This document shows, one piece after another, positions 914-18,420 of a stretch of 30,403 nt of DNA (within the stretch, counting starts at the first letter, position 1; every line of letters starts with the position of its first letter). The stretch comes from Thermoplasmatota archaeon. GTDB taxonomy: Archaea > Thermoplasmatota > Poseidoniia > Poseidoniales > Thalassarchaeaceae. Where the stretch lies: the NCBI GenBank assembly GCA_036153975.1, contig JAYZLU010000028.1, forward strand, positions 1 through 30,403. Reading direction: 5' to 3'. Position numbers and translations under genes: made by a program. The notes below the pieces were generated by a model that made no database searches, was not told the origin of the DNA, and saw nothing but the letters and a program-made list of their open reading frames with translations.

Positions 914-3900
914 ATGCAGACGAGAGTGGACGTATCCGATGGTACTACCGAGGCGGAGAGCGGGCTTGTCATAGAGCGGCGTTTCACCTCGGTCGGCGAA
1001 GATCCGTTCGATTTATTCCAGTGGATCGAGATGGATGTCGAGATCAGAAACCCGGACGGATCTATGGCTGACTCGATTGAGGGCGTTAAACTGCCTTCTG
1101 GGTTCTCTGGAGTACCCGGGAAGGTATGCGCCCAGAAGTATCTGCGCAAGGCGGGCGTTCCGAGGCTACTTCGGAAAGTGCCCGAAGATGGGGTGCCTGT
1201 CTGGCTACAGCGAAGTGAGCCGGACCACGAGCGGCTTCAGACCATTGATGCCGCACAAAGAATGGGTGGTGAGAATGACGGGAGGGACCTCTTCCGTCGA
1301 CTTGCAGGGACCTGGACCTACTGGGGCTGGAAGTACGGATACTTCGCTAGCGAGGCTGACGCCCGCGCCTACTTCGATGAGATGTGCTACCTGATTGCGA
1401 GTCAGCGTTCAGCGCCCAACAGTCCCCAGTGGTTCAACACGGGTCTCCACTGGGCCTACGGCATAGAGGGGCCAGCCCAGGGACACAGCTACGTCGATCC
1501 CTTGACTGGCGGTTTGGCCTACTCAACCAATGCATACGAGCATCCACAGCCACACGCCTGCTTCATCCAGTCGGTATCGGACTCGCTCGTTGGTGGGCCG
1601 GACTCAATAATGGGGCTGTGGAGCCGTGAGGCTCTGCTCTTCAAGTACGGCTCGGGAACTGGTTCGAACTTCTCCAATATTAGAGGCTTCGGAGAGCCTC
1701 TATCGGGCGGTGGTTCTTCCAGTGGTCTGCTGTCGTTTCTCAAGATAGGGGACCGGGCTGCTGGGGCCATCAAATCAGGAGGGACGACCAGACGTGCTGC
1801 GAAGATGGTGACGCTGGATCTCGACCACCCCGACATCGAGGAGTACATCGACTGGAAGCCGACCGAGGAGGAGAAGGTCTCCGCACTGGTGATTGGCAGC
1901 GCGATTCTGCAGAAGCACGCCAACGGTCTGATGGAAGCGATTTGGGAGTACGGTGACGAGGAGGACAGGTTCAGCCAGCAGACCAACCCAGGGCTTCGCA
2001 GCGCCATGGTGCGGGCAATCAAAGACAGCGTGCCTGAAGCGCACATCCAGAGAATCGTCGATCTCGCCAAGCAAGGGTGGGAGAGCCTCGAGTTCCAAGT
2101 GCTCGACACCGACTGGCAGGGAGAGGCCTACATGACCGTCTCGGGCCAGAACAGCAACAACTCCGTCCGCGTTCCCAACTCGTTCATGGACGCTGTCATC
2201 TCCGAGGGGGAATGGAGCCTATTCTGGCGAACCGAGAAGGAAGCGGCAGCGGCAGAGGGAAGGGCCCCGTTGCCTTGCAAAACTCTCGATGCGAGTGCGC
2301 TGTGGGACAAGGTGGCCTATACTGCTTGGGCCTGCGCCGATCCCGGGGTCCAGTTCGACACGACGATCAACGAGTGGCACACGTGCCCGGCCGCAGGTCG
2401 GATTAACGGCTCGAACCCGTGTTCGGAATACATGTTCCTAGATGACACTGCGTGCAACCTCGCGAGCATCAACCTCCTTCCCTACTACGACCTCGACACG
2501 CACACCTTCCAGATTGAGGAGTTCCGTCACAGCGTTCGCCTATGGACGACGACCTTGGAAATCAGCGTGCTCATGGCGCAATTCCCTTCGGAGTCAATCA
2601 CTCGGAAGTCCTACGATTACAGGACACTGGGACTCGGGTATTGTAACATAGGCTCGCTGCTGATGCACATGGGAGCCCCCTACGATGACGAGAAGGCCTA
2701 CGCTATCTGTGGGGCCATAACCTCTATCATGTGCGGTGAGACCTATGCCACCAGCGCCGAGATGGCTTCCATCCTAGGGGCGTTCCCAGACTACGAGAAG
2801 AACTCCGAGGACATGCTTAGGGTGATGCGCAACCACCGGCGCGCCGCTTACGATGCCCCGAACGAAGAATACGAGGGTATCACCGTGCCCCCAATAGGGA
2901 TCAATGCCAAGAAGTGCCCGAAGGATCTCCTCGATGCGGCCCGCAGTTCCTGGGACCGCGCCGTACGGGAAGGCGAGGAGCACGGGTATCGCAACGCTCA
3001 GACCACGGTCATCGCTCCAACCGGGACCATAGGTCTGGTAATGGGTGCAGACACCACGGGCGTGGAACCTCAGTACTCACTGGTCCAGTTCAAGACCCTA
3101 GCCGGCGGCGGCTCTCTCAGAATCGTCAACAAGGGCGTGCCGAACGCGTTGCGTCGTCTCGGCTACTCAGACAGCCAGACCAAGGCTATCGAGGAGTACA
3201 TCATAGGGACTGGGCATCTGAGAGGCTGCCCCACACTCTCAGTCGAGCGTCTGAATAACGCCGGCTTCTCCGCCAAACGCCTGAAGAGCATCGAGGGCAA
3301 GATGAGCGACGTGTTCGATCTCCGCTCCGCCTTCGCCCCTTCAATCCTCGGCAGGAAGTTCTGTACCGAGACCCTCGGGATGTCGGAATCAGATTATGGA
3401 GACCCCTTCTTCGACACCCTCGGTTTCATCGGTTTCACCTCGGAGGAGGTAGCCTCGGCCAACGTCCACGTCTTCGGCTACAACACGATAGAGGGCGCAC
3501 CCGGACTGAGAGACGAGCATCTGGCGGTCTTCGACTGCGCCACTCCCTGCGGCAAGTACGGCAAGAGGTCGATTGCCTGGCCTGCCCACGTGAAGATGAT
3601 GGCTGCAGCGCAGCCATTCATATCAGGGGCGATATCCAAGACCATTAACATGCCATCCAACTCTACGGTTGAGGACGTGAGGGAGGCCTACAACCTAAGT
3701 CACGCCACGATGAACAAGGCCTGCGCAGTATACCGAGACGGGAGCAAGCTGTCGCAGCCGCTGATGAACCAGCTCGTGGACAAGCCCAATCTCACAGATG
3801 AGGGCGAGGAAGTGGTCGAGAAGATGGTCGAAGAGGCAGTCAAGACGTTGCCGCTTCCCGAACCGACGGCCAAACCGGTGGCCGAGGCCTTCGTGCAGGA

Positions 3901-4546
3901 TTACATCGCGACTAGGCGTCTCCTTCCGGACAGGAAGAAGTCTGAGAACATCAAGGCCAAGGTCGGTGGACACAGCGTTCGTCTGATTACCGGGGAGTAT
4001 CAGGACGGTAAACTCGGGGAGATATTCCTGCTTACGTCGAAGGAGGGGGCAGCTTGGAGAGCCATGCTGTCCCAGTTCGCCATAGCCGTCTCCATAGGAC
4101 TGCAGCACGGAGTGCCAATAGACGCCTTCGTAAAGTCATTCATATTCTCAAAGTTCGAGCCGAGCGGGATGATAGAGGGCGGTAGCGGCCGGGTCAAGAT
4201 GTCCTCGAGCATAGTCGACTGGGTGTTCCGGGAGCTGGCTATAGAATACGCCGGCAGGGATGACCTAGCTCACGTAGCGGAGGAGGATCTCGACCAGTTC
4301 TCCATCAGCAAACCCCATATCTCTGAGGTCGGCGTGGTTCGCAGTCAAGGCGAAAAGAGGGACGTCCAGATGACCCTAGAAGCATCCGTTGCCCCCCTGG
4401 GGAGTCTAGAGTCGCGAGCACGCCAGGCCGCCAAAGAGCGCGGATTCACCGGTGACATCTGCGACGACTGCGGTGGCAGTCAGATGGTTCGGAACGGGAC
4501 CTGCTTGAAGTGTAACGAGTGCGGTGCCACCACAGGGTGCTCCTGA
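914..4546 (+). CDS. nrdJ: Class II (adenosylcobalamin-dependent) ribonucleotide reductase with C-terminal TSCPD-like domain and zinc ribbon
   Basis: PNSPQWFN, HACFIQSV, catalytic NPCSEY, CNLAS and IAPTGTIG motifs; SKTINMP; C-terminal CDDCG...CLKCNECGATTGCS. AGGAG at 899-903 upstream. No ATP-cone or intein evident. Confidence 0.96.
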   Translation: MQTRVDVSDGTTEAESGLVIERRFTSVGEDPFDLFQWIEMDVEIRNPDGSMADSIEGVKLPSGFSGVPGKVCAQKYLRKAGVPRLLRKVPEDGVPVWLQRSEPDHERLQTIDAAQRMGGENDGRDLFRRLAGTWTYWGWKYGYFASEADARAYFDEMCYLIASQRSAPNSPQWFNTGLHWAYGIEGPAQGHSYVDPLTGGLAYSTNAYEHPQPHACFIQSVSDSLVGGPDSIMGLWSREALLFKYGSGTGSNFSNIRGFGEPLSGGGSSSGLLSFLKIGDRAAGAIKSGGTTRRAAKMVTLDLDHPDIEEYIDWKPTEEEKVSALVIGSAILQKHANGLMEAIWEYGDEEDRFSQQTNPGLRSAMVRAIKDSVPEAHIQRIVDLAKQGWESLEFQVLDTDWQGEAYMTVSGQNSNNSVRVPNSFMDAVISEGEWSLFWRTEKEAAAAEGRAPLPCKTLDASALWDKVAYTAWACADPGVQFDTTINEWHTCPAAGRINGSNPCSEYMFLDDTACNLASINLLPYYDLDTHTFQIEEFRHSVRLWTTTLEISVLMAQFPSESITRKSYDYRTLGLGYCNIGSLLMHMGAPYDDEKAYAICGAITSIMCGETYATSAEMASILGAFPDYEKNSEDMLRVMRNHRRAAYDAPNEEYEGITVPPIGINAKKCPKDLLDAARSSWDRAVREGEEHGYRNAQTTVIAPTGTIGLVMGADTTGVEPQYSLVQFKTLAGGGSLRIVNKGVPNALRRLGYSDSQTKAIEEYIIGTGHLRGCPTLSVERLNNAGFSAKRLKSIEGKMSDVFDLRSAFAPSILGRKFCTETLGMSESDYGDPFFDTLGFIGFTSEEVASANVHVFGYNTIEGAPGLRDEHLAVFDCATPCGKYGKRSIAWPAHVKMMAAAQPFISGAISKTINMPSNSTVEDVREAYNLSHATMNKACAVYRDGSKLSQPLMNQLVDKPNLTDEGEEVVEKMVEEAVKTLPLPEPTAKPVAEAFVQDYIATRRLLPDRKKSENIKAKVGGHSVRLITGEYQDGKLGEIFLLTSKEGAAWRAMLSQFAIAVSIGLQHGVPIDAFVKSFIFSKFEPSGMIEGGSGRVKMSSSIVDWVFRELAIEYAGRDDLAHVAEEDLDQFSISKPHISEVGVVRSQGEKRDVQMTLEASVAPLGSLESRARQAAKERGFTGDICDDCGGSQMVRNGTCLKCNECGATTGCS

Positions 4547-10971: not shown

Positions 10972-11730
10972 GTGACTAGCAAGAGGAGGCGTTGGGCCCG
11001 TTGGACCACTGGCTCCTCGTTGCTGCTACTCGTGCTGGCCGTTGTCTCCTTGGTCCAAGTGTACCCCCTCCTAGTCAGCACCTTCGACCCAGAGTCCAAC
11101 TACGTGGTCAAGATAGAACCAGAGGAGGAAAAGGGATTCTCGCTGGAGGGACCGACTGTGCTGACGGCTCTCCGAGTGACCGACGGGGACACTCCCACGG
11201 CGGAACTGAGGTTGATCGACCAGAGCGGAAACGAAATCATCGGCAGAGCCCCCGGATTCTTGGACTCCGACCGTCCAGGATCCGACAGCGAGACGTTCTA
11301 TGCCCCAGTCAGGATTTTCGACGTAATCGGGTCGGGTACTTACACCCTGCATAACGACGCCGAGGAATTGCATCTTTGGCTGGTGGACGACGGGGACCTA
11401 GCGGCCCAGATCGACGGCAATCCATGGTTGTATTTGTTCTACATTGGGTGCTGCCTAGGCCTTCCGCTGGGCCTGATCGGCTTGGTCCTCGCTGTCATGG
11501 TGTGGAGCGACAAGCGCAAGGCGCCCGACCAGTACGTCGTAATCCAGGACGGTAGCGTCATCTTGACCGACGTGGACAGCATACAGACTATGCAGGCCCA
11601 GGAGGGGAGCGTCATCGAGACCGGGGTCGTTGGTGGCGTTCCAGGTCCCTTCATCGGCGAGGAGTCATCGGTCCAGGAGGCGAAGGTTGAGGGAGCCGAG
11701 CAGGAATGGAAGAAGTGGGACGAAGGCTGA
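10972..11730 (+). CDS. Hypothetical membrane protein (N-terminal TM or signal anchor, extracytoplasmic domain, second TM, acidic tail)
   Basis: GTG start. Hydrophobic SSLLLLVLAVVSLVQVYPLLV and WLYLFYIGCCLGLPLGLIGLVLAVMVW. GC-rich coding-like codon usage. Confidence 0.75.
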   Translation: MTSKRRRWARWTTGSSLLLLVLAVVSLVQVYPLLVSTFDPESNYVVKIEPEEEKGFSLEGPTVLTALRVTDGDTPTAELRLIDQSGNEIIGRAPGFLDSDRPGSDSETFYAPVRIFDVIGSGTYTLHNDAEELHLWLVDDGDLAAQIDGNPWLYLFYIGCCLGLPLGLIGLVLAVMVWSDKRKAPDQYVVIQDGSVILTDVDSIQTMQAQEGSVIETGVVGGVPGPFIGEESSVQEAKVEGAEQEWKKWDEG

Positions 11731-11812: not shown

Positions 11813-12550
11813 ATGGTCGGGTTCGACGAGTCTCTGAGCATACTCGAGAATACTACCAGAAGGAAGATTCTGAGGTGCCTCGTCAAGGAGCCCCACTACC
11901 CCCTGCAACTCTCTGAGTTGCTTGACGTAAGCCAACAAGCGGTCGTGAAGCACCTCAGGGTGCTCGAGGGCGCTGGCTTCGTGGACTCCGAGATGACGAA
12001 ATCCAACAAGGGTGGGCCCCCGAAGAAGGTCTACAGGGTAAACCAGTCATTCTCGATTCGCCTAGACCTAGGGCCAGACCTGTTTCGAGCCGAGCACAGG
12101 AAGATGCCGAAGGGAGGCGCGATTAGGCTCTCTGGTAGGCTCCCTAGTGAACTGGACAGCGTTGTCGAGAGGATTGGGACACGCAGGCGGCTACCGATGG
12201 TTGATGCGATGAGTATCCTATCAGGCCTAGATGCTGCTTTGGAGCGAATCGATGAGCAGCGAGATGCCATAATCGCGCTTCACCAGCAAGTGATGCACAA
12301 GGTCTCGCCCAGCGTTGAAGAGCATTCCGAATCCTATGAGGAAAGGCAGCTCGCACACGCGATGATGAGCCACCCGAGGAGACCCCTCGACCTCGATGCG
12401 TTCTCCAACGGACTGCGAATCCAGTCCATGCACGCTGAGAAAATGATGGACAGCCTGCGAAATCGTCTCATGAGGGACTTCGCAGCCACTCGGGGAACCT
12501 TCGTCGCTGCCAAGGAGAGTACTCCCCTACCTTGGTGGATGGCTCGATAA
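11813..12550 (+). CDS. ArsR-family winged-HTH transcriptional regulator (archaeal COG1777-like) with C-terminal helical region
   Basis: LENTTRRKILRCL...YPLQLSELLDVSQQAVVKHLRVLEGAGFV...GGPPKKVY wHTH signature. Confidence 0.88.
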   Translation: MVGFDESLSILENTTRRKILRCLVKEPHYPLQLSELLDVSQQAVVKHLRVLEGAGFVDSEMTKSNKGGPPKKVYRVNQSFSIRLDLGPDLFRAEHRKMPKGGAIRLSGRLPSELDSVVERIGTRRRLPMVDAMSILSGLDAALERIDEQRDAIIALHQQVMHKVSPSVEEHSESYEERQLAHAMMSHPRRPLDLDAFSNGLRIQSMHAEKMMDSLRNRLMRDFAATRGTFVAAKESTPLPWWMAR

Positions 12551-15500
12551 TCAGAAGCGCAGGTCGTCGTCTTCCATCCCTGGGAGCAGGCTGCTCAACT
12601 CGGCAAACCTGCTAAGTGCGGCGATTCTCCTGCCATAGATGACGTATCCGGAGACGCCAATCAGGGAGAAAGTTGCCCCGAGGATGATTACTGGGACAGA
12701 GTACTTGGCAATCACATCGACGCCGACATCGACAACACCGAGCGTCGAGCTCATCTTTCCACCGGGGATTCTGCGTATGTTGTTCGTCTCGTCCGTCTCG
12801 ACTATGACATTGTCAGGATCGACGACGACTACGATATCATGGTTACCGGCTTGGACCATGTACAGAAGGGTAATCGAGTTGGGTTCCTCCGTATCGTCCT
12901 CGGCTATCGGCATTATCGCCTTAACAATCTGCCTGTAGACGATGTTGATCTCCTCGCAGCCGTTCCTCTTGATGTCGGTCTCTGACTGGTCCTTGCAAAG
13001 AATGATGTTTACGTCGGTCGCATGCGCATTGCCACGGTTGACAACCTTCACGCTGACCGAAAGCATCTCACCAATCTCACCCTTGGTCTTGGCCGCCTCG
13101 ACTTCTATGATCTCTAGGTCCGGGGCCCTTAGCCGTAGTTCGAGTATCTGCTCGTTGGTGTCGCACGCGGGTGGGTAGTTGTCAGGCAGGCCGTCCTTAT
13201 TTGCATCGAGGGTACACGAGTCATCCCATATCGGCGTCTCGTCGTGGTCACCTCCGACCTCCGAGGAACCAAACATCGATTTCGTCTTGATGCCGATGAA
13301 TCGATCTTGGAGGGCGGCGTCGGGGGCTATGGTGACTATCACAACGACCTGGAACGTCGTGTAGGGCTCCATCATGGGGAGCGTCACGGTGAGGCCGGGA
13401 GTGACGAAGCACTCTCCTTCAGGAGGAGCCTCGCCCACGATTATCTCGACGCATGGCTTCTCTCTGGGATATTCAGTCCTGAAGCCTTCGAGCAATGCGA
13501 AGTCGATACGCCATGTGCTCAGGGCGTACATCCCCGGGGAAACGCCCCAAACACCCGCAACATCGACAGTGTGGTTGTGAAGCGTCGGTTGATCGGGGAT
13601 GTTGCCGTGGTTGGTGACGTTGACGGTGAATCTGACAATCCTGCTTGGAGCTGTGGTCTTGATCTTGCTCTCCACGGCTGGGTCGAGAGAGATTCTCATG
13701 TCGTGGAACTCCACGATGGTAATGCGCAGAACAAGATTGTCCTGAAGCCTCGTGCCCTCGAACGGTTCCTCGCTGAGTACGTTGAAGGTGATGGTATACT
13801 GGCCGGCTAGCGTCTGCTCGGGGACGTTCACGAGGATTGGCACGGTCTGGGACTCGTCCCTGTCCAACTCCTGGAAGAGGATTCGGGGGATATTCATGTC
13901 CCAGACGTGCGAGCCGCCGCTCGCATCAACGATGGAGGCTATCGAGATGTCATATCGATCGGGTCCATTACCAAGGTTTTCAATCGTCGTGTCCATTTGG
14001 TACGACTGGCCGGGGTAGAGTTCCAGGATGGTGTTGGGTATCGCAGCCTCGAGTTCGTACCTCTGCACGACGTTCGTGAGGATGACCACGGAGTCGCGGA
14101 CTTTCGGGGATCCGTCGAGGTGCGCCCGCACAGTGATGGACTCTCCTATGCCGGCTGTGGAGTTGTAGGGAGCACACATCTCCGCTGTGACGGTATAAGG
14201 GGTGTCGATCTGGGCCCAGTACCTTGGTGCTTTGTCAGGTATGGAATTGCCTCCAGGGGCCTCGGAGAAGTCGAGGTCGACGGTCCAGTGGTTGAATTGC
14301 CAGGTCAGAAGGTCAAAGCTCTCTGGCTTCTCCTCGGGAGCGCCGGGGGTGGTGAACACAATGTGCCCGGGAGTGAAATGCTTGGTAACTTCGATAGCGA
14401 AGTAAGCGCATTCGCCAGGCAGAACATACTGCTTGGTGTCACCAATCTGGAAGACGATGTTGCCCGTGGTACGGATTGAGACGTTGATCCACAACTCCAA
14501 GACATCGAATGTGCCTCTGTCTATGGACAGCACCGGCTCTCCCGTCGACCAACCTTTGAGGTAGATGACGAAGGTCCCCGGGTCCTGCGACTCCGGAACA
14601 CTGACCTTGAGGTTCTTGGTTGTCGACTGACCTGGGTCTAGGGAGAGTGATGTTGGGAAATCGATGCCCCATCCAAAGGGCAGGGCCCACTCATTCTGGC
14701 CTTCTAGGGTAGAGGGGTCGTAGAAGGCGAATGTATCGTAGACGTTGCCGGTGTTCTTGATGGTGATTGAGAACACCGCCGACTTCCCCTGCTCTACATC
14801 CACTTGGGAGTGACTGGTGTCTAATTCTATACCGTGAACCACGTCCATCAGAGTCAGTAGTAGTTGCTGGTTGCGAATCGCGGGGTCCTTGTGGGACGTT
14901 GCCAATATCGTGATTTGCGCCAGTTCGTCCTGTTTGGCCTGATATATCGTAGGAGCTCTGATTCTGATGTAAAGCGGCACCACCTCGCCTCCCTCTAGGA
15001 AAACTGGGGTCGAATCGAAGACGGGTGTGTTGTTAGTCGCGAAGAACAGTGTGGCCGTCCAGTTGTTCGGGACGCCATCGACGGTGACCGTGAAGGTGTC
15101 CTTAACGAGTTCTGCGGGGCCGGGAGTCGGGTTGGCAATGGTCATGTTGAACGTCGTCAAATCGCCGGGTTGGATGGTGTGGTAGAACGTCTCGGCATCT
15201 ATTGGGCAGTCGTAAGGGTAGCCCAAGAGGTTCGGGTTGCCTTGTACCTTGTCATCACAGGCGAGGGAGACATCTACTAAGCCCGTTAGAACGTGGACGT
15301 AGCAGAGTGTGTACCTGTTCGAATTGTGGTCTTCGTTGCACTTGTTGGTGTCGGACCAGCCCAAGTGAGCGCCGCTACCCAAATCGTTAGCGAATGCAGG
15401 AGGCATGCCATAGTCGGGAGAAGCCGGGGAGTTCGGTCCTAGCTTGTCTGACTGCCACAAAGTTACAGGTACCTTCTGCCAAGGATCGAAGATCGCCGAG

Positions 15501-17707
15501 GCGATGGAATTCAGCGGGAAGCCGTCTGGGTAGGCGTCGTTCGTGTGGTTTAGCCTCGTGTACATCACGGTCTCGCCTTGTGTCTCGTTGTAGTTGTCGA
15601 GCCAAGCGATGTGCACGTTATCGAAGGAGTCGGTAATTATCGCTGGAAAGTGGGAGTTGGCAGCAAATGGCCTATCTGCCGGAATTCCTGCAGGGCCTTC
15701 GACATCGGAGATTGCCCCATCTGCAATCAGCTTGATTCCGAAGGTAGGGAGCCCCCCTGGTGCTCCGTTCCACGCTGCTGAGCCTCGCAGCCTCAGTTTG
15801 GTGTAATAGACCTCGTAGTTGACATCAATCTCGAATCCGTAGACTCGTCCGTCCTGCCAGACGAGATGGGTGTTTCCGGAAGAATCAATGGAAATCGCGG
15901 GATGGAGACTGTAGGCGTCATCGATGGTTATCCTCGTGTCATTGACGACTACGAGGTGGCCGTATCCTTGTTCGTCCTCGGAGGGGCCGAGGTCCTCGGA
16001 GTAGTAGCCGTATTGGCTGTTCATCTCTGTTCCCGAGTCCCCCGGCACCCACCCAGGCCATGGGTTTTCGAGGAGCGAGAGGGGGTCGAGGACGGTCATG
16101 TAAATCTCGCGGGAGTTGTTGGTCGCAAGGTAAACCATCGCCTCGACCATGATCTCCAACTCGGTGGACGAAGAGGAGGAGGTTGGGAAGCTGTACATCT
16201 GGCCGCCTGCGTTGGTGAGTCGGGTTGTCGAGCCGGGGCATGTTCTGGTGTTCAGGCCGGCGCCGTTCGGGCACTGGGCAAGATCCTGCATGTAGGAGCC
16301 GACTCCAGTGTCCGAGCCGGCCCAGAGCGGAGTTGGGATGATGTCTGCGATGACGCAAGCGTCGTGGGCTTGGTTGATGCTCTGGGTGTCATCGTTGTCC
16401 ATCGGCGTGCCGCCGTAGGGCCCCTCGTCCGAAATCGGGATTACGATCTTGGTCGCGTTGGGGTTCCACGGGTGGTCTGCCGAGGTCGGAGGGTTGCCGG
16501 GGACGTTGCCTGAGATGTCTCGCCAGGACAAGCAGGCCCAAGTCGAAGCAGGGCCCCAGAACTCGCTGTAGTAGCCACCGTCGGCGGGTAGGTCGACTGC
16601 TTGGTTGTTGTAAACCACTTGTGTCAGCTCCCTGATGCCACCCGAGTCGTCCCCGGGCGTCAGTCCCAACGGGAGGTTCCTCGGCCCCTGACTCCCAGAG
16701 CCACCGGTCTGGTAGGCATCAGCGCAGGCTCCGCTCGTTGCGGCTGACGGCCAGTTGCCGCTGAGTGCGTACAGGGTCTCGTACACCGTCATGTTAGCAC
16801 TCACTAGCAGTGGCTTGAGCCCGGGGAAGAATCCTCCGCTAGCGAAGTTGCCGCCGTAGAACACGACGCACATGTCGGCCCATTCGGTGTTCATCGATCC
16901 AGAGGTGTCGATGGGAACGGCCATCTCCACCTTTCCTCCTCTGGTATCGTCCCACACAATCTGAACGAAGTCGTCGACATCGACGGCGATGTCGGGATGG
17001 CCCTTGTGGCCGAGAATTGGCGTCAACAGTGTGTCATCGACCTCGATGATGGCTGTCCTAGCTATGTGGTCTATCGAGAGCATCTTGTAGTATATCTGTG
17101 GCTGCTGGTAGAACTTCTCCAGCGGCTCGAAGTGGTCCTCCCAAACGATGTGGGGGTTGTTGTTGGAATCGACGTCGATTGCGGGCCAATCACGATTCTG
17201 GGGGTTGTTGGTAACCTCGTAGTCGTCGGGTAAGACCGAGAGCACCGAGTCGAGTGACGCGTCCCCGTTCTGATCGTCGAGGGATGGGTCCAGTAACGTG
17301 TACATGATCTTGTACTGGCCCGCCTTATCGGTCCAGACGATGTGGACCATGTCATTGTCGTCGACCTTAACGTCGGGGTGCCAAGCGCGTTGCTGACCTG
17401 GATCGGATATCTGTGTCTGCTCGATTAGGGTCTCTCCTCTGGGGTCGAGCATCTTGTAGTACAGGTGGTTGGTGTTACGACTCCAAACGACGTGAATGTT
17501 GCCTTCGGAGTCAGCATTAAGCGCAATCATCCTGTCATTGTGAGTACCGCTATCGACAACCTGGACTGCATCTGTCAGCACGATATCGGTGGCCGAAGCC
17601 GTTGGAACAAAGGCTGAGAGGAGGCTGACTAGCATGAGGGAGGCGAGCGCAATGCTGCTCCTCTTCACTCCTTGATATTCGAGTTGGCCCGAGCAAGGCT
17701 GCTGCAT
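12551..17707 (-). CDS. 1718-aa single-pass cell-surface protein: propeller-like repeats, inserted vWA, Ig-like repeats, CARDB, TM
   Basis: Signal peptide (SIALASLMLVSLLSAFVPTASA); 7 PxIxxDxxxxxHxxWxD repeats; DTSGS MIDAS; NTGN/NLGN/NHGN Ig-like repeats; CARDB (PDLEI...VDPDNVIVETDETNN); TM at 12632-12697. TATA-like GTTAAGTA at 17731-17738 fits a leaderless ATG at 17707; GTG 17668 is an alternative start. Confidence 0.9.
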   Translation of the reverse strand: MQQPCSGQLEYQGVKRSSIALASLMLVSLLSAFVPTASATDIVLTDAVQVVDSGTHNDRMIALNADSEGNIHVVWSRNTNHLYYKMLDPRGETLIEQTQISDPGQQRAWHPDVKVDDNDMVHIVWTDKAGQYKIMYTLLDPSLDDQNGDASLDSVLSVLPDDYEVTNNPQNRDWPAIDVDSNNNPHIVWEDHFEPLEKFYQQPQIYYKMLSIDHIARTAIIEVDDTLLTPILGHKGHPDIAVDVDDFVQIVWDDTRGGKVEMAVPIDTSGSMNTEWADMCVVFYGGNFASGGFFPGLKPLLVSANMTVYETLYALSGNWPSAATSGACADAYQTGGSGSQGPRNLPLGLTPGDDSGGIRELTQVVYNNQAVDLPADGGYYSEFWGPASTWACLSWRDISGNVPGNPPTSADHPWNPNATKIVIPISDEGPYGGTPMDNDDTQSINQAHDACVIADIIPTPLWAGSDTGVGSYMQDLAQCPNGAGLNTRTCPGSTTRLTNAGGQMYSFPTSSSSSTELEIMVEAMVYLATNNSREIYMTVLDPLSLLENPWPGWVPGDSGTEMNSQYGYYSEDLGPSEDEQGYGHLVVVNDTRITIDDAYSLHPAISIDSSGNTHLVWQDGRVYGFEIDVNYEVYYTKLRLRGSAAWNGAPGGLPTFGIKLIADGAISDVEGPAGIPADRPFAANSHFPAIITDSFDNVHIAWLDNYNETQGETVMYTRLNHTNDAYPDGFPLNSIASAIFDPWQKVPVTLWQSDKLGPNSPASPDYGMPPAFANDLGSGAHLGWSDTNKCNEDHNSNRYTLCYVHVLTGLVDVSLACDDKVQGNPNLLGYPYDCPIDAETFYHTIQPGDLTTFNMTIANPTPGPAELVKDTFTVTVDGVPNNWTATLFFATNNTPVFDSTPVFLEGGEVVPLYIRIRAPTIYQAKQDELAQITILATSHKDPAIRNQQLLLTLMDVVHGIELDTSHSQVDVEQGKSAVFSITIKNTGNVYDTFAFYDPSTLEGQNEWALPFGWGIDFPTSLSLDPGQSTTKNLKVSVPESQDPGTFVIYLKGWSTGEPVLSIDRGTFDVLELWINVSIRTTGNIVFQIGDTKQYVLPGECAYFAIEVTKHFTPGHIVFTTPGAPEEKPESFDLLTWQFNHWTVDLDFSEAPGGNSIPDKAPRYWAQIDTPYTVTAEMCAPYNSTAGIGESITVRAHLDGSPKVRDSVVILTNVVQRYELEAAIPNTILELYPGQSYQMDTTIENLGNGPDRYDISIASIVDASGGSHVWDMNIPRILFQELDRDESQTVPILVNVPEQTLAGQYTITFNVLSEEPFEGTRLQDNLVLRITIVEFHDMRISLDPAVESKIKTTAPSRIVRFTVNVTNHGNIPDQPTLHNHTVDVAGVWGVSPGMYALSTWRIDFALLEGFRTEYPREKPCVEIIVGEAPPEGECFVTPGLTVTLPMMEPYTTFQVVVIVTIAPDAALQDRFIGIKTKSMFGSSEVGGDHDETPIWDDSCTLDANKDGLPDNYPPACDTNEQILELRLRAPDLEIIEVEAAKTKGEIGEMLSVSVKVVNRGNAHATDVNIILCKDQSETDIKRNGCEEINIVYRQIVKAIMPIAEDDTEEPNSITLLYMVQAGNHDIVVVVDPDNVIVETDETNNIRRIPGGKMSSTLGVVDVGVDVIAKYSVPVIILGATFSLIGVSGYVIYGRRIAALSRFAELSSLLPGMEDDDLRF

Positions 17708-17793: not shown

Positions 17794-18420
17794 CTAGGCC
17801 CACTCAAGGGGATCGAAGTCCTTGCCGAAGCCACCGGTCTCGTCGGTGTCGATTTCGGATGTCCTAGGCTGGGATTGGGAACTTCTTTTCACAGCGCTCT
17901 TGGCAATCCAGTCATCGACCGGTCCTGGCTTGCCAGTTCCGGTTCCAAATCCGTACTTGATCTGGTGGATGAGAGAGAGCTTGGTCAGCCAGACTTTCCT
18001 CATCGTATGCATGAATTCGTTCTGGGACAGACCGTCGAACCAGACTGGTCTTGAGAGGTTGAACGCCTGAAGGGGTCCTGCAACCCCGTCACTGCTGCGG
18101 CCGACGTGGAGGACCCAGTCGAGATCTGAGGAGGTCAGATGGATTCGGGTGTCATGCAGCCACTCCTCCCAGCCGTCGGAATCCTCCGAAGCGAGCTCCC
18201 TCATCGAATTCTGCTGTCCTTCGTCGACTCGTGTGATGGAGTAAACAAGTGCTAAATTCCTCTTTTTCGGAATTACGACGTTGAACAAGTGGCCCTGCTT
18301 GGTTGGGGGGTACCTGACATGGAGATGCAGGATCGCTTGTGGGTCCCTGACTTCGCGAGCCTCCAATCGCTCACTGTCTAACCACGCCCTGATGGCCTTC
18401 CCAGCTTCTCGCGGATCCAC
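17794..18420 (-). CDS. Conserved archaeal hypothetical protein, DUF2299-like
   Basis: GTG start. IRAWLDSE..EV.D..A..H..V..P pattern resembles DUF2299 from memory; not verified. Confidence 0.55.
   Translation of the reverse strand: MDPREAGKAIRAWLDSERLEAREVRDPQAILHLHVRYPPTKQGHLFNVVIPKKRNLALVYSITRVDEGQQNSMRELASEDSDGWEEWLHDTRIHLTSSDLDWVLHVGRSSDGVAGPLQAFNLSRPVWFDGLSQNEFMHTMRKVWLTKLSLIHQIKYGFGTGTGKPGPVDDWIAKSAVKRSSQSQPRTSEIDTDETGGFGKDFDPLEWA

Follow-up and report, generated by a model that had tools for sequence, protein, structure and literature searches.

A Poseidoniales surface protein with a predicted seven-bladed propeller, a vWA domain nested in its fourth blade and a candidate metal site recalls the layout of integrin alpha chains

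The minus-strand gene at positions 12551–17707 of contig JAYZLU010000028.1 (GenBank assembly GCA_036153975.1), from a Thermoplasmatota archaeon of the family Thalassarchaeaceae in the order Poseidoniales, raises the question of whether an archaeal surface protein has arrived at the plan of an integrin alpha chain and, if so, what it does at the cell surface. The stretch analysed, referred to as the window, comprises 30,403 nucleotides, and within it the open reading frame (ORF) is uninterrupted over 1718 codons. A preliminary description had proposed the layout of an I-domain integrin alpha chain, reached by convergence. We found seven propeller repeats interrupted by a von Willebrand factor A (vWA) domain, which in our models is nested inside the fourth blade and carries an intact MIDAS motif (metal-ion-dependent adhesion site). 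At slightly better than even confidence, we read the protein as a stalked surface receptor that would bind a carboxylate of its ligand via a cation at the vWA site, the propeller face possibly helping, for attachment to particles, cells or polymers. The gene and the parts of the head that this reading concerns are the following.

12551–17707, minus strand: the whole gene (P0001), encoding a 1718-amino-acid (aa) type I membrane surface protein; the ORF is intact, and Poseidoniales as a whole contain orthologues of the full length, about 1700 aa.
16946–17536, minus strand: predicted propeller blades 1–3 and the first hairpin (strands 1 and 2) of blade 4, residues 58–254, from DSSP of head model m07c630bdd8c3, repeat positions and propeller matches.
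16112–16945, minus strand: divergent, enlarged vWA domain predicted to be nested in blade 4, residues 255–532, with six invariant cysteines, from model m729448c14e75 and matches in PDB, the AlphaFold database (AFDB) and ESM Atlas.
16895–16909, minus strand: MIDAS motif D267-T-S269-G-S271, invariant in 35 orthologues and replaced in a paralogue clade.
16562–16564, minus strand: E382, candidate fourth MIDAS ligand, a beta-I-like Glu, from its conservation pattern.
16427–16432, minus strand: S426-D427, candidate MIDAS Asp at the end of the strand KIVIPIS, lost with DxSxS in the paralogue clade and lying after a beta-strand in the model.
15263–16111, minus strand: the predicted remainder of blade 4 (third strand REIYMTVLDP onward) and blades 5–7, residues 533–815, from DSSP and from alignments to seven-bladed propellers over model residues 8–772.

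Seven hairpin repeats, which follow the pattern P-x-I-x-V-D-x(4-5)-H-[IV]-V-W, were located at residues 58–83, 108–133, 172–197, 235–260, 600–625, 685–710 and 767–792, split 4+3 by a 278-residue insert. The count of four repeats before and three after the vWA domain, already given in the preliminary description, was borne out by a loose pattern, D-x(3-7)-[HQ][ILV][VAG]W, which occurred 7 times, whereas 5000 shuffles gave 0.03 on average and never more than 2. The head (residues 38–905) was modelled with AlphaFold2 from 42 sequences of one family and without templates (model m07c630bdd8c3), giving a predicted local distance difference test (pLDDT) score of 85.1 and a predicted template modelling (pTM) score of 0.84, with a pLDDT of at least 80.6 in all five models. 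According to DSSP, the model consists of seven four-stranded blades and an alpha/beta insert. When compared by VIA-align, it matched the C-terminal domain of CylK (7ron) with a Z score of 33.0 (350 aa at 2.5 Å, model residues 8–772), PLL/PHL lectins with Z scores of 26–28 (315 of 336 lectin residues aligned at 2.9 Å across the insert), and integrins alpha-M and alpha-L with Z scores of 24–25, WD40 proteins being similar (Z 24–26). Because the superposition on solved seven-bladed propellers spans the insert, the 4+3 repeats are assigned to one closed ring, and the head is predicted to be a single closed seven-bladed beta-propeller, as had been proposed, rather than two incomplete propellers or another fold.

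The models rest on only 41–42 sequences of one family and no templates, and no experimental structure exists, which leaves some room for the integrin-like head to be an artefact of structure prediction, the two groups of repeats being in reality separate or open. We consider this very improbable, since the pTM and the scores of all five models, the 315 lectin residues superposed across the insert, the resumption of the blade-4 third-strand motif after the insert in the sequence itself, and the finding that the insert alone gives the same vWA topology all speak against it.

Relatives that share only the blades number in the hundreds and match the Pfam families BNR_4 and SBBP, so that the blades can be assigned to a widespread prokaryotic propeller repeat of the BNR/SBBP type and not to FG-GAP. 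In the same class, the PDIAV/BNR_4/SBBP propellers (PDIAV_lipo, the CylK C-terminal domain and the PLL lectins) share both repeat type and fold with the archaeal head. The NCBIfam profile NF053835 for the PDIAV motif-containing lipoprotein (PDIAV_lipo) gave 49.1 bits over residues 25–132, below its 90-bit cut-off; judged by these matches the repeat type is that of PDIAV_lipo, yet the protein falls outside that equivalog. FG-GAP (PF01839) was not found with the whole protein at E values up to 1 or with segments up to 10, no Pfam family was matched by the second blade group, and neither the head sequence nor the head profile retrieved anything from the PDB sequences at E values up to 10.

The boundaries of the insert determine where the vWA domain sits. 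Only four residues lie between the repeat-4 hairpin (QIVWDD) and the first strand of the insert, and directly after the insert comes REIYMTVLDP (533–541), which resembles the third-strand motif of blades 1–3 (LYYKMLDP, IMYTLLDP and IYYKML) and forms a strand in the head model, being disordered in the model of the insert alone. Since the third-strand motif of blade 4 resumes right after the insert, we place the vWA domain (255–532) inside blade 4, between strands 2 and 3. The integrin I domain is found between blades 2 and 3 (PMC3192720). The preliminary description was therefore right in excluding the blade 2 position of integrins, but its placement of the insertion after blade 4 has to be moved to a point within that blade, before the third strand.

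When folded alone (residues 255–562, AlphaFold2, 41 sequences of one family, without templates; model m729448c14e75), the insert reached a pLDDT of 85.7 and showed the same vWA topology. The top 50 matches by VIA-align among 48,161 PDB representatives were all vWA folds, with Z scores of 9.3–12.2 and 150–195 aa aligned at 3–4 Å. They included collagen VI (6snk_B, Z 12.2), BatB (3ibs, 12.0), CMG2 (11.9), VWF A1 (11.7), integrin beta-3 (10.2) and integrin alpha-M (10.1), as well as pilus-tip adhesins, TRAP, Rpn10 and TFIIH p44, the vWA types being all tied by this measure. With Foldseek, integrin beta chains filled the top 50 for the isolated insert (best 2vdk_B, 2.4e-5, TM-score about 0.38), a ranking that probably reflects the long extra loops common to the insert and beta-I domains. 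Structure searches with the insert led to VWFA proteins among the AFDB clusters (1.2e-9) and to VWA families in ESM Atlas. Taken together, the models and fold matches indicate that the insert is a divergent, enlarged vWA domain of about 280 aa with extra loops, and that the DTSGS segment does belong to a vWA fold.

DTSGSM, E-x-WG and IPISDE are retained by compact, non-nested relatives of the insert that belong to another Thermoplasmatota family; the Pfam VWA model, with its cut-off of 23.8 bits, scored one of these at 23.2. Such compact versions were observed in two genomes (L011:21-2303, plus strand, and L012:3-3872, minus strand), in proteins with Big_7/PKD-like domains and without PDIAV blades. 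The existence of compact stand-alone relatives therefore suggests that the gene arose when a propeller of the PDIAV type took up an archaeal vWA module that already existed, the compact vWA proteins likely being the kind of donor module involved.

The metal site of the vWA domain was traced through the conservation of its residues. DTSGS (residues 267–271) lies at window positions 16895–16909, directly after the first strand of the insert; the motif is intact, as first noted, and is invariant in 35 orthologues sharing 58–90% identity. E382 and S426-D427, the latter within WNPNATKIVIPISDEGP (residues 414–430), are also invariant in the orthologues, and E382 is kept wherever DxSxS is intact, compact relatives of the other family included. 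A five-member paralogue clade (P0131, P0136, P0137, P0138 and P0142; for example L004:776-6058; support 100/99) lacks the DxSxS motif. Its proteins, of 1650–1770 aa, have the propeller plus the vWA domain with the scaffold retained: E310, T311, D353, G356, W384, D411, H412 and H448 are invariant in the clade and S355 nearly so. At the candidate site, D267 is replaced by P in four of the five members, S269 by T, M, A, D or N, E382 by K, L, R or D (again in four of the five), and D427 by Y, S, E, R or V, while S271 also drifts. Because these positions drift together in the paralogue clade, D267, S269, S271, E382 and D427 would form a single functional unit, on the evidence of one or two events. 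Outside the clade, only DxSxS is changed in P0124, a partial case. P0126 carries DSSGS, and its marking in the tree as having lost the MIDAS came solely from its omission from alignment A4. In some genera of Thalassarchaeaceae, other contigs hold second copies that matched more weakly (E about 1e-99 to 1e-109).

The MIDAS set of integrin beta-I domains is D-S-S-E-D and that of alpha-I domains is D-S-S-T-D. On this comparison E382 is probably the fourth metal ligand, as in beta-I, and not the Thr of alpha-I.

To what extent, then, is the protein integrin-like? In a Foldseek search of the whole head against PDB chains, I-domain integrin alpha chains came first (7p2d_A at 3.1e-8, 5e6s, 9p97 and 3k6s), and for this reason we regard the resemblance of layout to the integrin head as real. 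The likeness to these chains comprises a type I topology, a seven-bladed propeller with a looped-out vWA/MIDAS domain, an Ig-like stalk, one transmembrane (TM) helix and a short tail. The propeller superposes on them with Z scores of 23–25. There are also differences. Integrin alpha blades are FG-GAP repeats, whereas those of the archaeal protein are of the BNR/SBBP type; the integrin vWA domain lies between blades 2 and 3, as compared with its position within blade 4 here; and the archaeal vWA domain, which measures about 280 aa and has additional loops as well as six cysteines, probably uses Glu and not Thr as fourth ligand, unlike alpha-I. Where the integrin stalk has thigh and calf domains (Integrin_alpha2), the archaeal one has CARDB/NEW3; the GFFKR motif is missing from the archaeal tail, which starts with GRRIAAL; and integrin alpha pairs with a beta subunit, while the archaeal protein has no evident partner. 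The integrin Pfam families gave no match in the protein, and no sequence similarity to integrins was detected. Since the protein shares neither FG-GAP blades nor the insertion site, thigh/calf domains or GFFKR with integrin alpha chains, we interpret the resemblance as convergence and not as integrin membership. The original preference for convergence over homology is thus upheld by the missing FG-GAP and integrin Pfam matches and by the BNR_4/SBBP matches of the blade-only relatives. The label of an I-domain alpha layout holds for the whole head, but not for the isolated vWA domain, which by Foldseek is nearest to integrin beta-I and whose fourth ligand is probably Glu.

With the beta-I domains (beta-3, beta-8 and beta-7) the insert shares an enlarged vWA fold with long insertions, nesting in another domain, a DxSxSM start and an apparent Glu ligand at the MIDAS; the host is the hybrid domain in integrin beta and the propeller in the archaeal protein, and TM-scores are only about 0.38, with Z scores of about 10 tied with many vWA domains. 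A surface-exposed MIDAS vWA domain on a stalk or fibre is also what the prokaryotic vWA adhesins present (PilY1 and the pilus-tip proteins SpaC, PitA, PilB and Mfa5), the insert matching such adhesins by VIA-align at 6m48 (Z 10.3), 7w6b (10.2), 7b7p (10.5) and 6tnj (10.6). In those proteins, however, the vWA domain is terminal or nested in Ig-like/pilin modules and is borne on a fibre, whereas the archaeal one sits in a propeller blade and is TM-anchored. PilY1 is described as having a vWA domain plus a propeller in tandem (PMC11331964). No second example of a nested vWA domain was evident among the 30 AFDB cluster matches listed for the whole head, propeller proteins most of whose aligned ranges are too short, three longer ones not having been inspected, and no paper describing this protein was found in the literature.

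The remaining parts of the protein are as follows.

17591–17707, minus strand: predicted signal peptide, residues 1–39, with a basic n-region, a hydrophobic stretch at 17–36 and ASA followed by T; from hydropathy and sequence, with a putative cleavage site.
13127–15127, minus strand: stalk of about five to six divergent, predicted Ig-like beta-sandwich modules, residues 861–1527 (NPCBM_assoc/NEW3, Ig_VWA7 and the choice-of-anchor-T region at 1172–1318), from Pfam, NCBIfam and weak xVxNxGN matches by hhalign.
12776–13126, minus strand: membrane-proximal CARDB domain, residues 1528–1644, from Pfam PF07705.
12632–12697, minus strand: predicted TM helix, residues 1671–1692, from hydropathy.
12554–12631, minus strand: predicted cytoplasmic tail of 26 aa (GRRIAALSRFAELSSLLPGMEDDDLRF), from the sequence, with RR and one Ser invariant.

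The hydrophobic N-terminus (residues 17–39, ending in ASA), the TM helix and the basic membrane-proximal tail predict a membrane-anchored protein with surface topology, and hydropathy agrees with the signal peptide, the helix at 12632–12697 and the 26-aa tail of the preliminary description. The invariant tail columns are R814, R815 and S827 of alignment A2. Cysteines are paired along the ectodomain, six invariant ones lying within the vWA domain, which we read as rich in disulfides. The CARDB domain (residues 1528–1644) was matched at 5.9e-16, with 59 bits against a cut-off of 22.7, and hidden Markov models (HMMs) detected NPCBM_assoc, DUF7507 and CARDB in 35 of 35 aligned orthologues and Ig_VWA7 in 30 of them. 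A marginal, partial match to the NCBIfam model NF041740 (choice-of-anchor T; 73.8 bits, cut-off 70) had its best stretch at residues 1172–1318, corresponding to profile positions 95–245 of 259. Aligning the CARDB segment with the stalk by hhalign gave only short xVxNxGN matches (E 0.004 and above), and because these internal matches are weak the number of Ig modules, about six by xVxNxGN, is approximate. The HMM matches thus suggest a stalk of Ig-like modules plus CARDB; of the stalk first described, the CARDB domain and the Ig-like character stand, while the count of modules becomes about five to six.

We then considered how the protein is distributed. The searches brought up more than 500 relatives, of which the close ones are about 1700 aa long, cover the entire head and share 55–100% identity; their records, from Poseidoniales, Thalassarchaeaceae and Poseidoniaceae, are labelled 'CARDB domain-containing', 'uncharacterized membrane protein' or 'hypothetical'. 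The insert profile matched 293 of 301 Poseidoniales species genomes, 65 of the 66 high-quality ones and all 26 genera, almost always in one copy in one family and in 1–5 copies in some genera of the other. Beyond the order, when 151 genomes from the phylum were sampled, only two genomes of one other family gave matches, and these were weak. The window protein and its Poseidoniaceae orthologue are 54% identical overall (propeller 57–58%, vWA domain 57%, stalk 50%); the same comparison between families gave 58% for the neighbouring topoisomerase VI-B and 36–37% for the acyltransferase and the flavoprotein. For an extracellular protein of such size, this conservation at the sequence level is indicative of strong constraint. 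The neighbours in the window encode a class II ribonucleotide reductase, TFIIB, aconitase, topoisomerase VI B and A, an ArsR-type helix-turn-helix (HTH) protein, a DUF2299 protein, an acyltransferase and an FAD protein, and gene order is kept in both Poseidoniales families.

This distribution brings forward the main alternative, in which the protein is the principal structural, surface-layer (S-layer)-like envelope protein, its stalk serving as anchor, its heads tiling the surface and its metal site stabilizing lattice contacts between subunits instead of binding foreign ligands. Presence in 293 of 301 species genomes and 65 of 66 high-quality ones, single-copy status in one entire family, a synteny with TFIIB, aconitase and topoisomerase VI that both families retain, and conservation over the full length, the stalk at 50% included, would all suit such a role, and the literature yielded no paper in which an S-layer protein of Poseidoniales is named. 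Archaeal S-layer glycoproteins are, moreover, often Ig-like arrays with a C-terminal TM anchor and form cation-dependent lattices. S-layer proteins, however, usually diverge much faster than 54% identity between families would imply, N-glycosylation sequons are not enriched (13 observed, about 12 expected), and an invariant MIDAS of the exposed type is more typical of ligand binding. Contigs of four RNA-library runs from two studies extend along the gene at 95–100% identity with the neighbours covered equally, so that the depth is no higher than theirs, although depth is a poor measure. On balance we regard the S-layer-like role as unlikely, while taking it seriously.

The propeller could also be the working part, making the protein a surface-anchored lectin or a polysaccharide lyase/hydrolase that captures or cuts algal glycans, with an accessory or regulatory vWA domain. 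The propeller matches fucose-binding PLL/PHL lectins (Z 26–28), GH145 (23–24.5), the PL25 ulvan lyase (20.6) and a rhamnose-glucuronate lyase (22.5), and blade-only relatives carry Laminin_G_3, dockerin and GH43-like matches. Sequence identity to all of these is nevertheless 12% or less, and WD40 propellers score alike (Z 24–26). No glycoside hydrolase or lyase family was matched in Pfam by the whole protein or its segments, no catalytic residues were identified, and the strongest invariance sits in the vWA site. An enzyme or lectin role of the propeller, which overlaps with adhesion, is accordingly rated as rather improbable.

Returning to the stalked receptor that we favour, a divalent cation would be held at the vWA metal site and its coordination would be completed by a carboxylate that an external ligand supplies, be it a protein or an acidic polymer. 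Such an attachment, set off from the membrane, would fasten the cell to particles, to the surface of phytoplankton or to polymeric substrate, and the propeller might provide a second, lectin-like binding surface. Marine Group II (MGII), the Poseidoniales, has been linked to particles and to unnamed adhesion-domain proteins (PMC4511931, PMC6461757).

Several observations weigh against this proposal. Whereas the ORF, the repeats, the nesting, both folds, the conservation and the distribution come out of the analysis itself, we infer that the protein binds metal and ligand, that it serves adhesion, that E382 acts at the site and that the five residues, which as a set look beta-I-like, cluster there. 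The coupled loss of these residues rests on one clade and one partial case (P0124), that is, on one or two events. Residues 255–600 matched no Pfam family, VWA and VWA_2 included, at E values up to 10, and the insert profile found nothing among PDB sequences at E values up to 10. A near-universal, mostly single-copy, housekeeping-linked and strongly conserved gene is atypical of adhesins, which are usually variable and strain-specific, and its near-universality and housekeeping setting are no less in keeping with a core function in the envelope than with the role of an accessory adhesin. The RNA-library contigs are compatible with transcription but do not demonstrate it, because they neither give an expression level nor exclude DNA carry-over.

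A bolder possibility, to which we give little credence, is that of a single-chain functional analogue of integrins, in which a beta-I-type vWA domain, wired by its first strand and last helix into the blade, would switch between states of low and high affinity, coupling through the rigid Ig stalk and the TM helix to the conserved cytoplasmic tail, and so support adhesion signalling that is regulated and runs both ways. Partner or decoy chains might be supplied by the paralogues without a MIDAS that some genera of Thalassarchaeaceae possess. Among the neighbouring genes no candidate for a partner chain was found, the DUF2299 protein being cytoplasmic and a two-TM protein poorly conserved, and Pfam Integrin_beta was not found in 21 related genomes in a search that had no positive control.

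Other features of the neighbourhood deserve mention in their own right. The DUF2299 protein, encoded at 17794–18420 (minus strand), 86 bp upstream and on the same strand, has no signal peptide or TM helix; its position is kept in the other Poseidoniales family, at 54% identity, and it may be co-transcribed with the surface-protein gene or linked to that gene's product in function. A 252-aa protein without a Pfam match is encoded at 10972–11730 (plus strand). Anchored at its N-terminus, it has a domain of about 130 aa on the outside, then a second TM helix and a tail that is acidic; it occupies a conserved syntenic slot and is 23% identical to a 343-aa counterpart in the other family. The ArsR-type HTH gene (11813–12550, plus strand) converges with the surface-protein gene with zero intergenic bases between the stop codons, and since the convergent stops adjoin at 12550–12551 the two genes cannot each have a terminator of their own between them. 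At 914–4546 (plus strand), the class II ribonucleotide reductase is 1210 aa long, with its barrel domain matched in two stretches and TSCPD near the C-terminus, and an insertion, for instance an intein, might account for the additional length.

MGII archaea are among the most abundant planktonic archaea and are uncultured. What is known of their contact with particles, algae and polymers goes no further than 'adhesion domains' to which no name is given (PMC4511931, PMC6461757). The gene described here provides one concrete, nearly universal and strongly constrained surface molecule of MGII, with a defined candidate site (D267, S269, S271, E382 and D427) that is open to expression, to mutation and to use as a probe or antibody target. 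It also presents a clean case of convergent evolution, in which a propeller with a nested metal-site vWA domain on an Ig stalk, an arrangement otherwise known, to our knowledge, from chordate integrins, would have been put together from unrelated prokaryotic modules.

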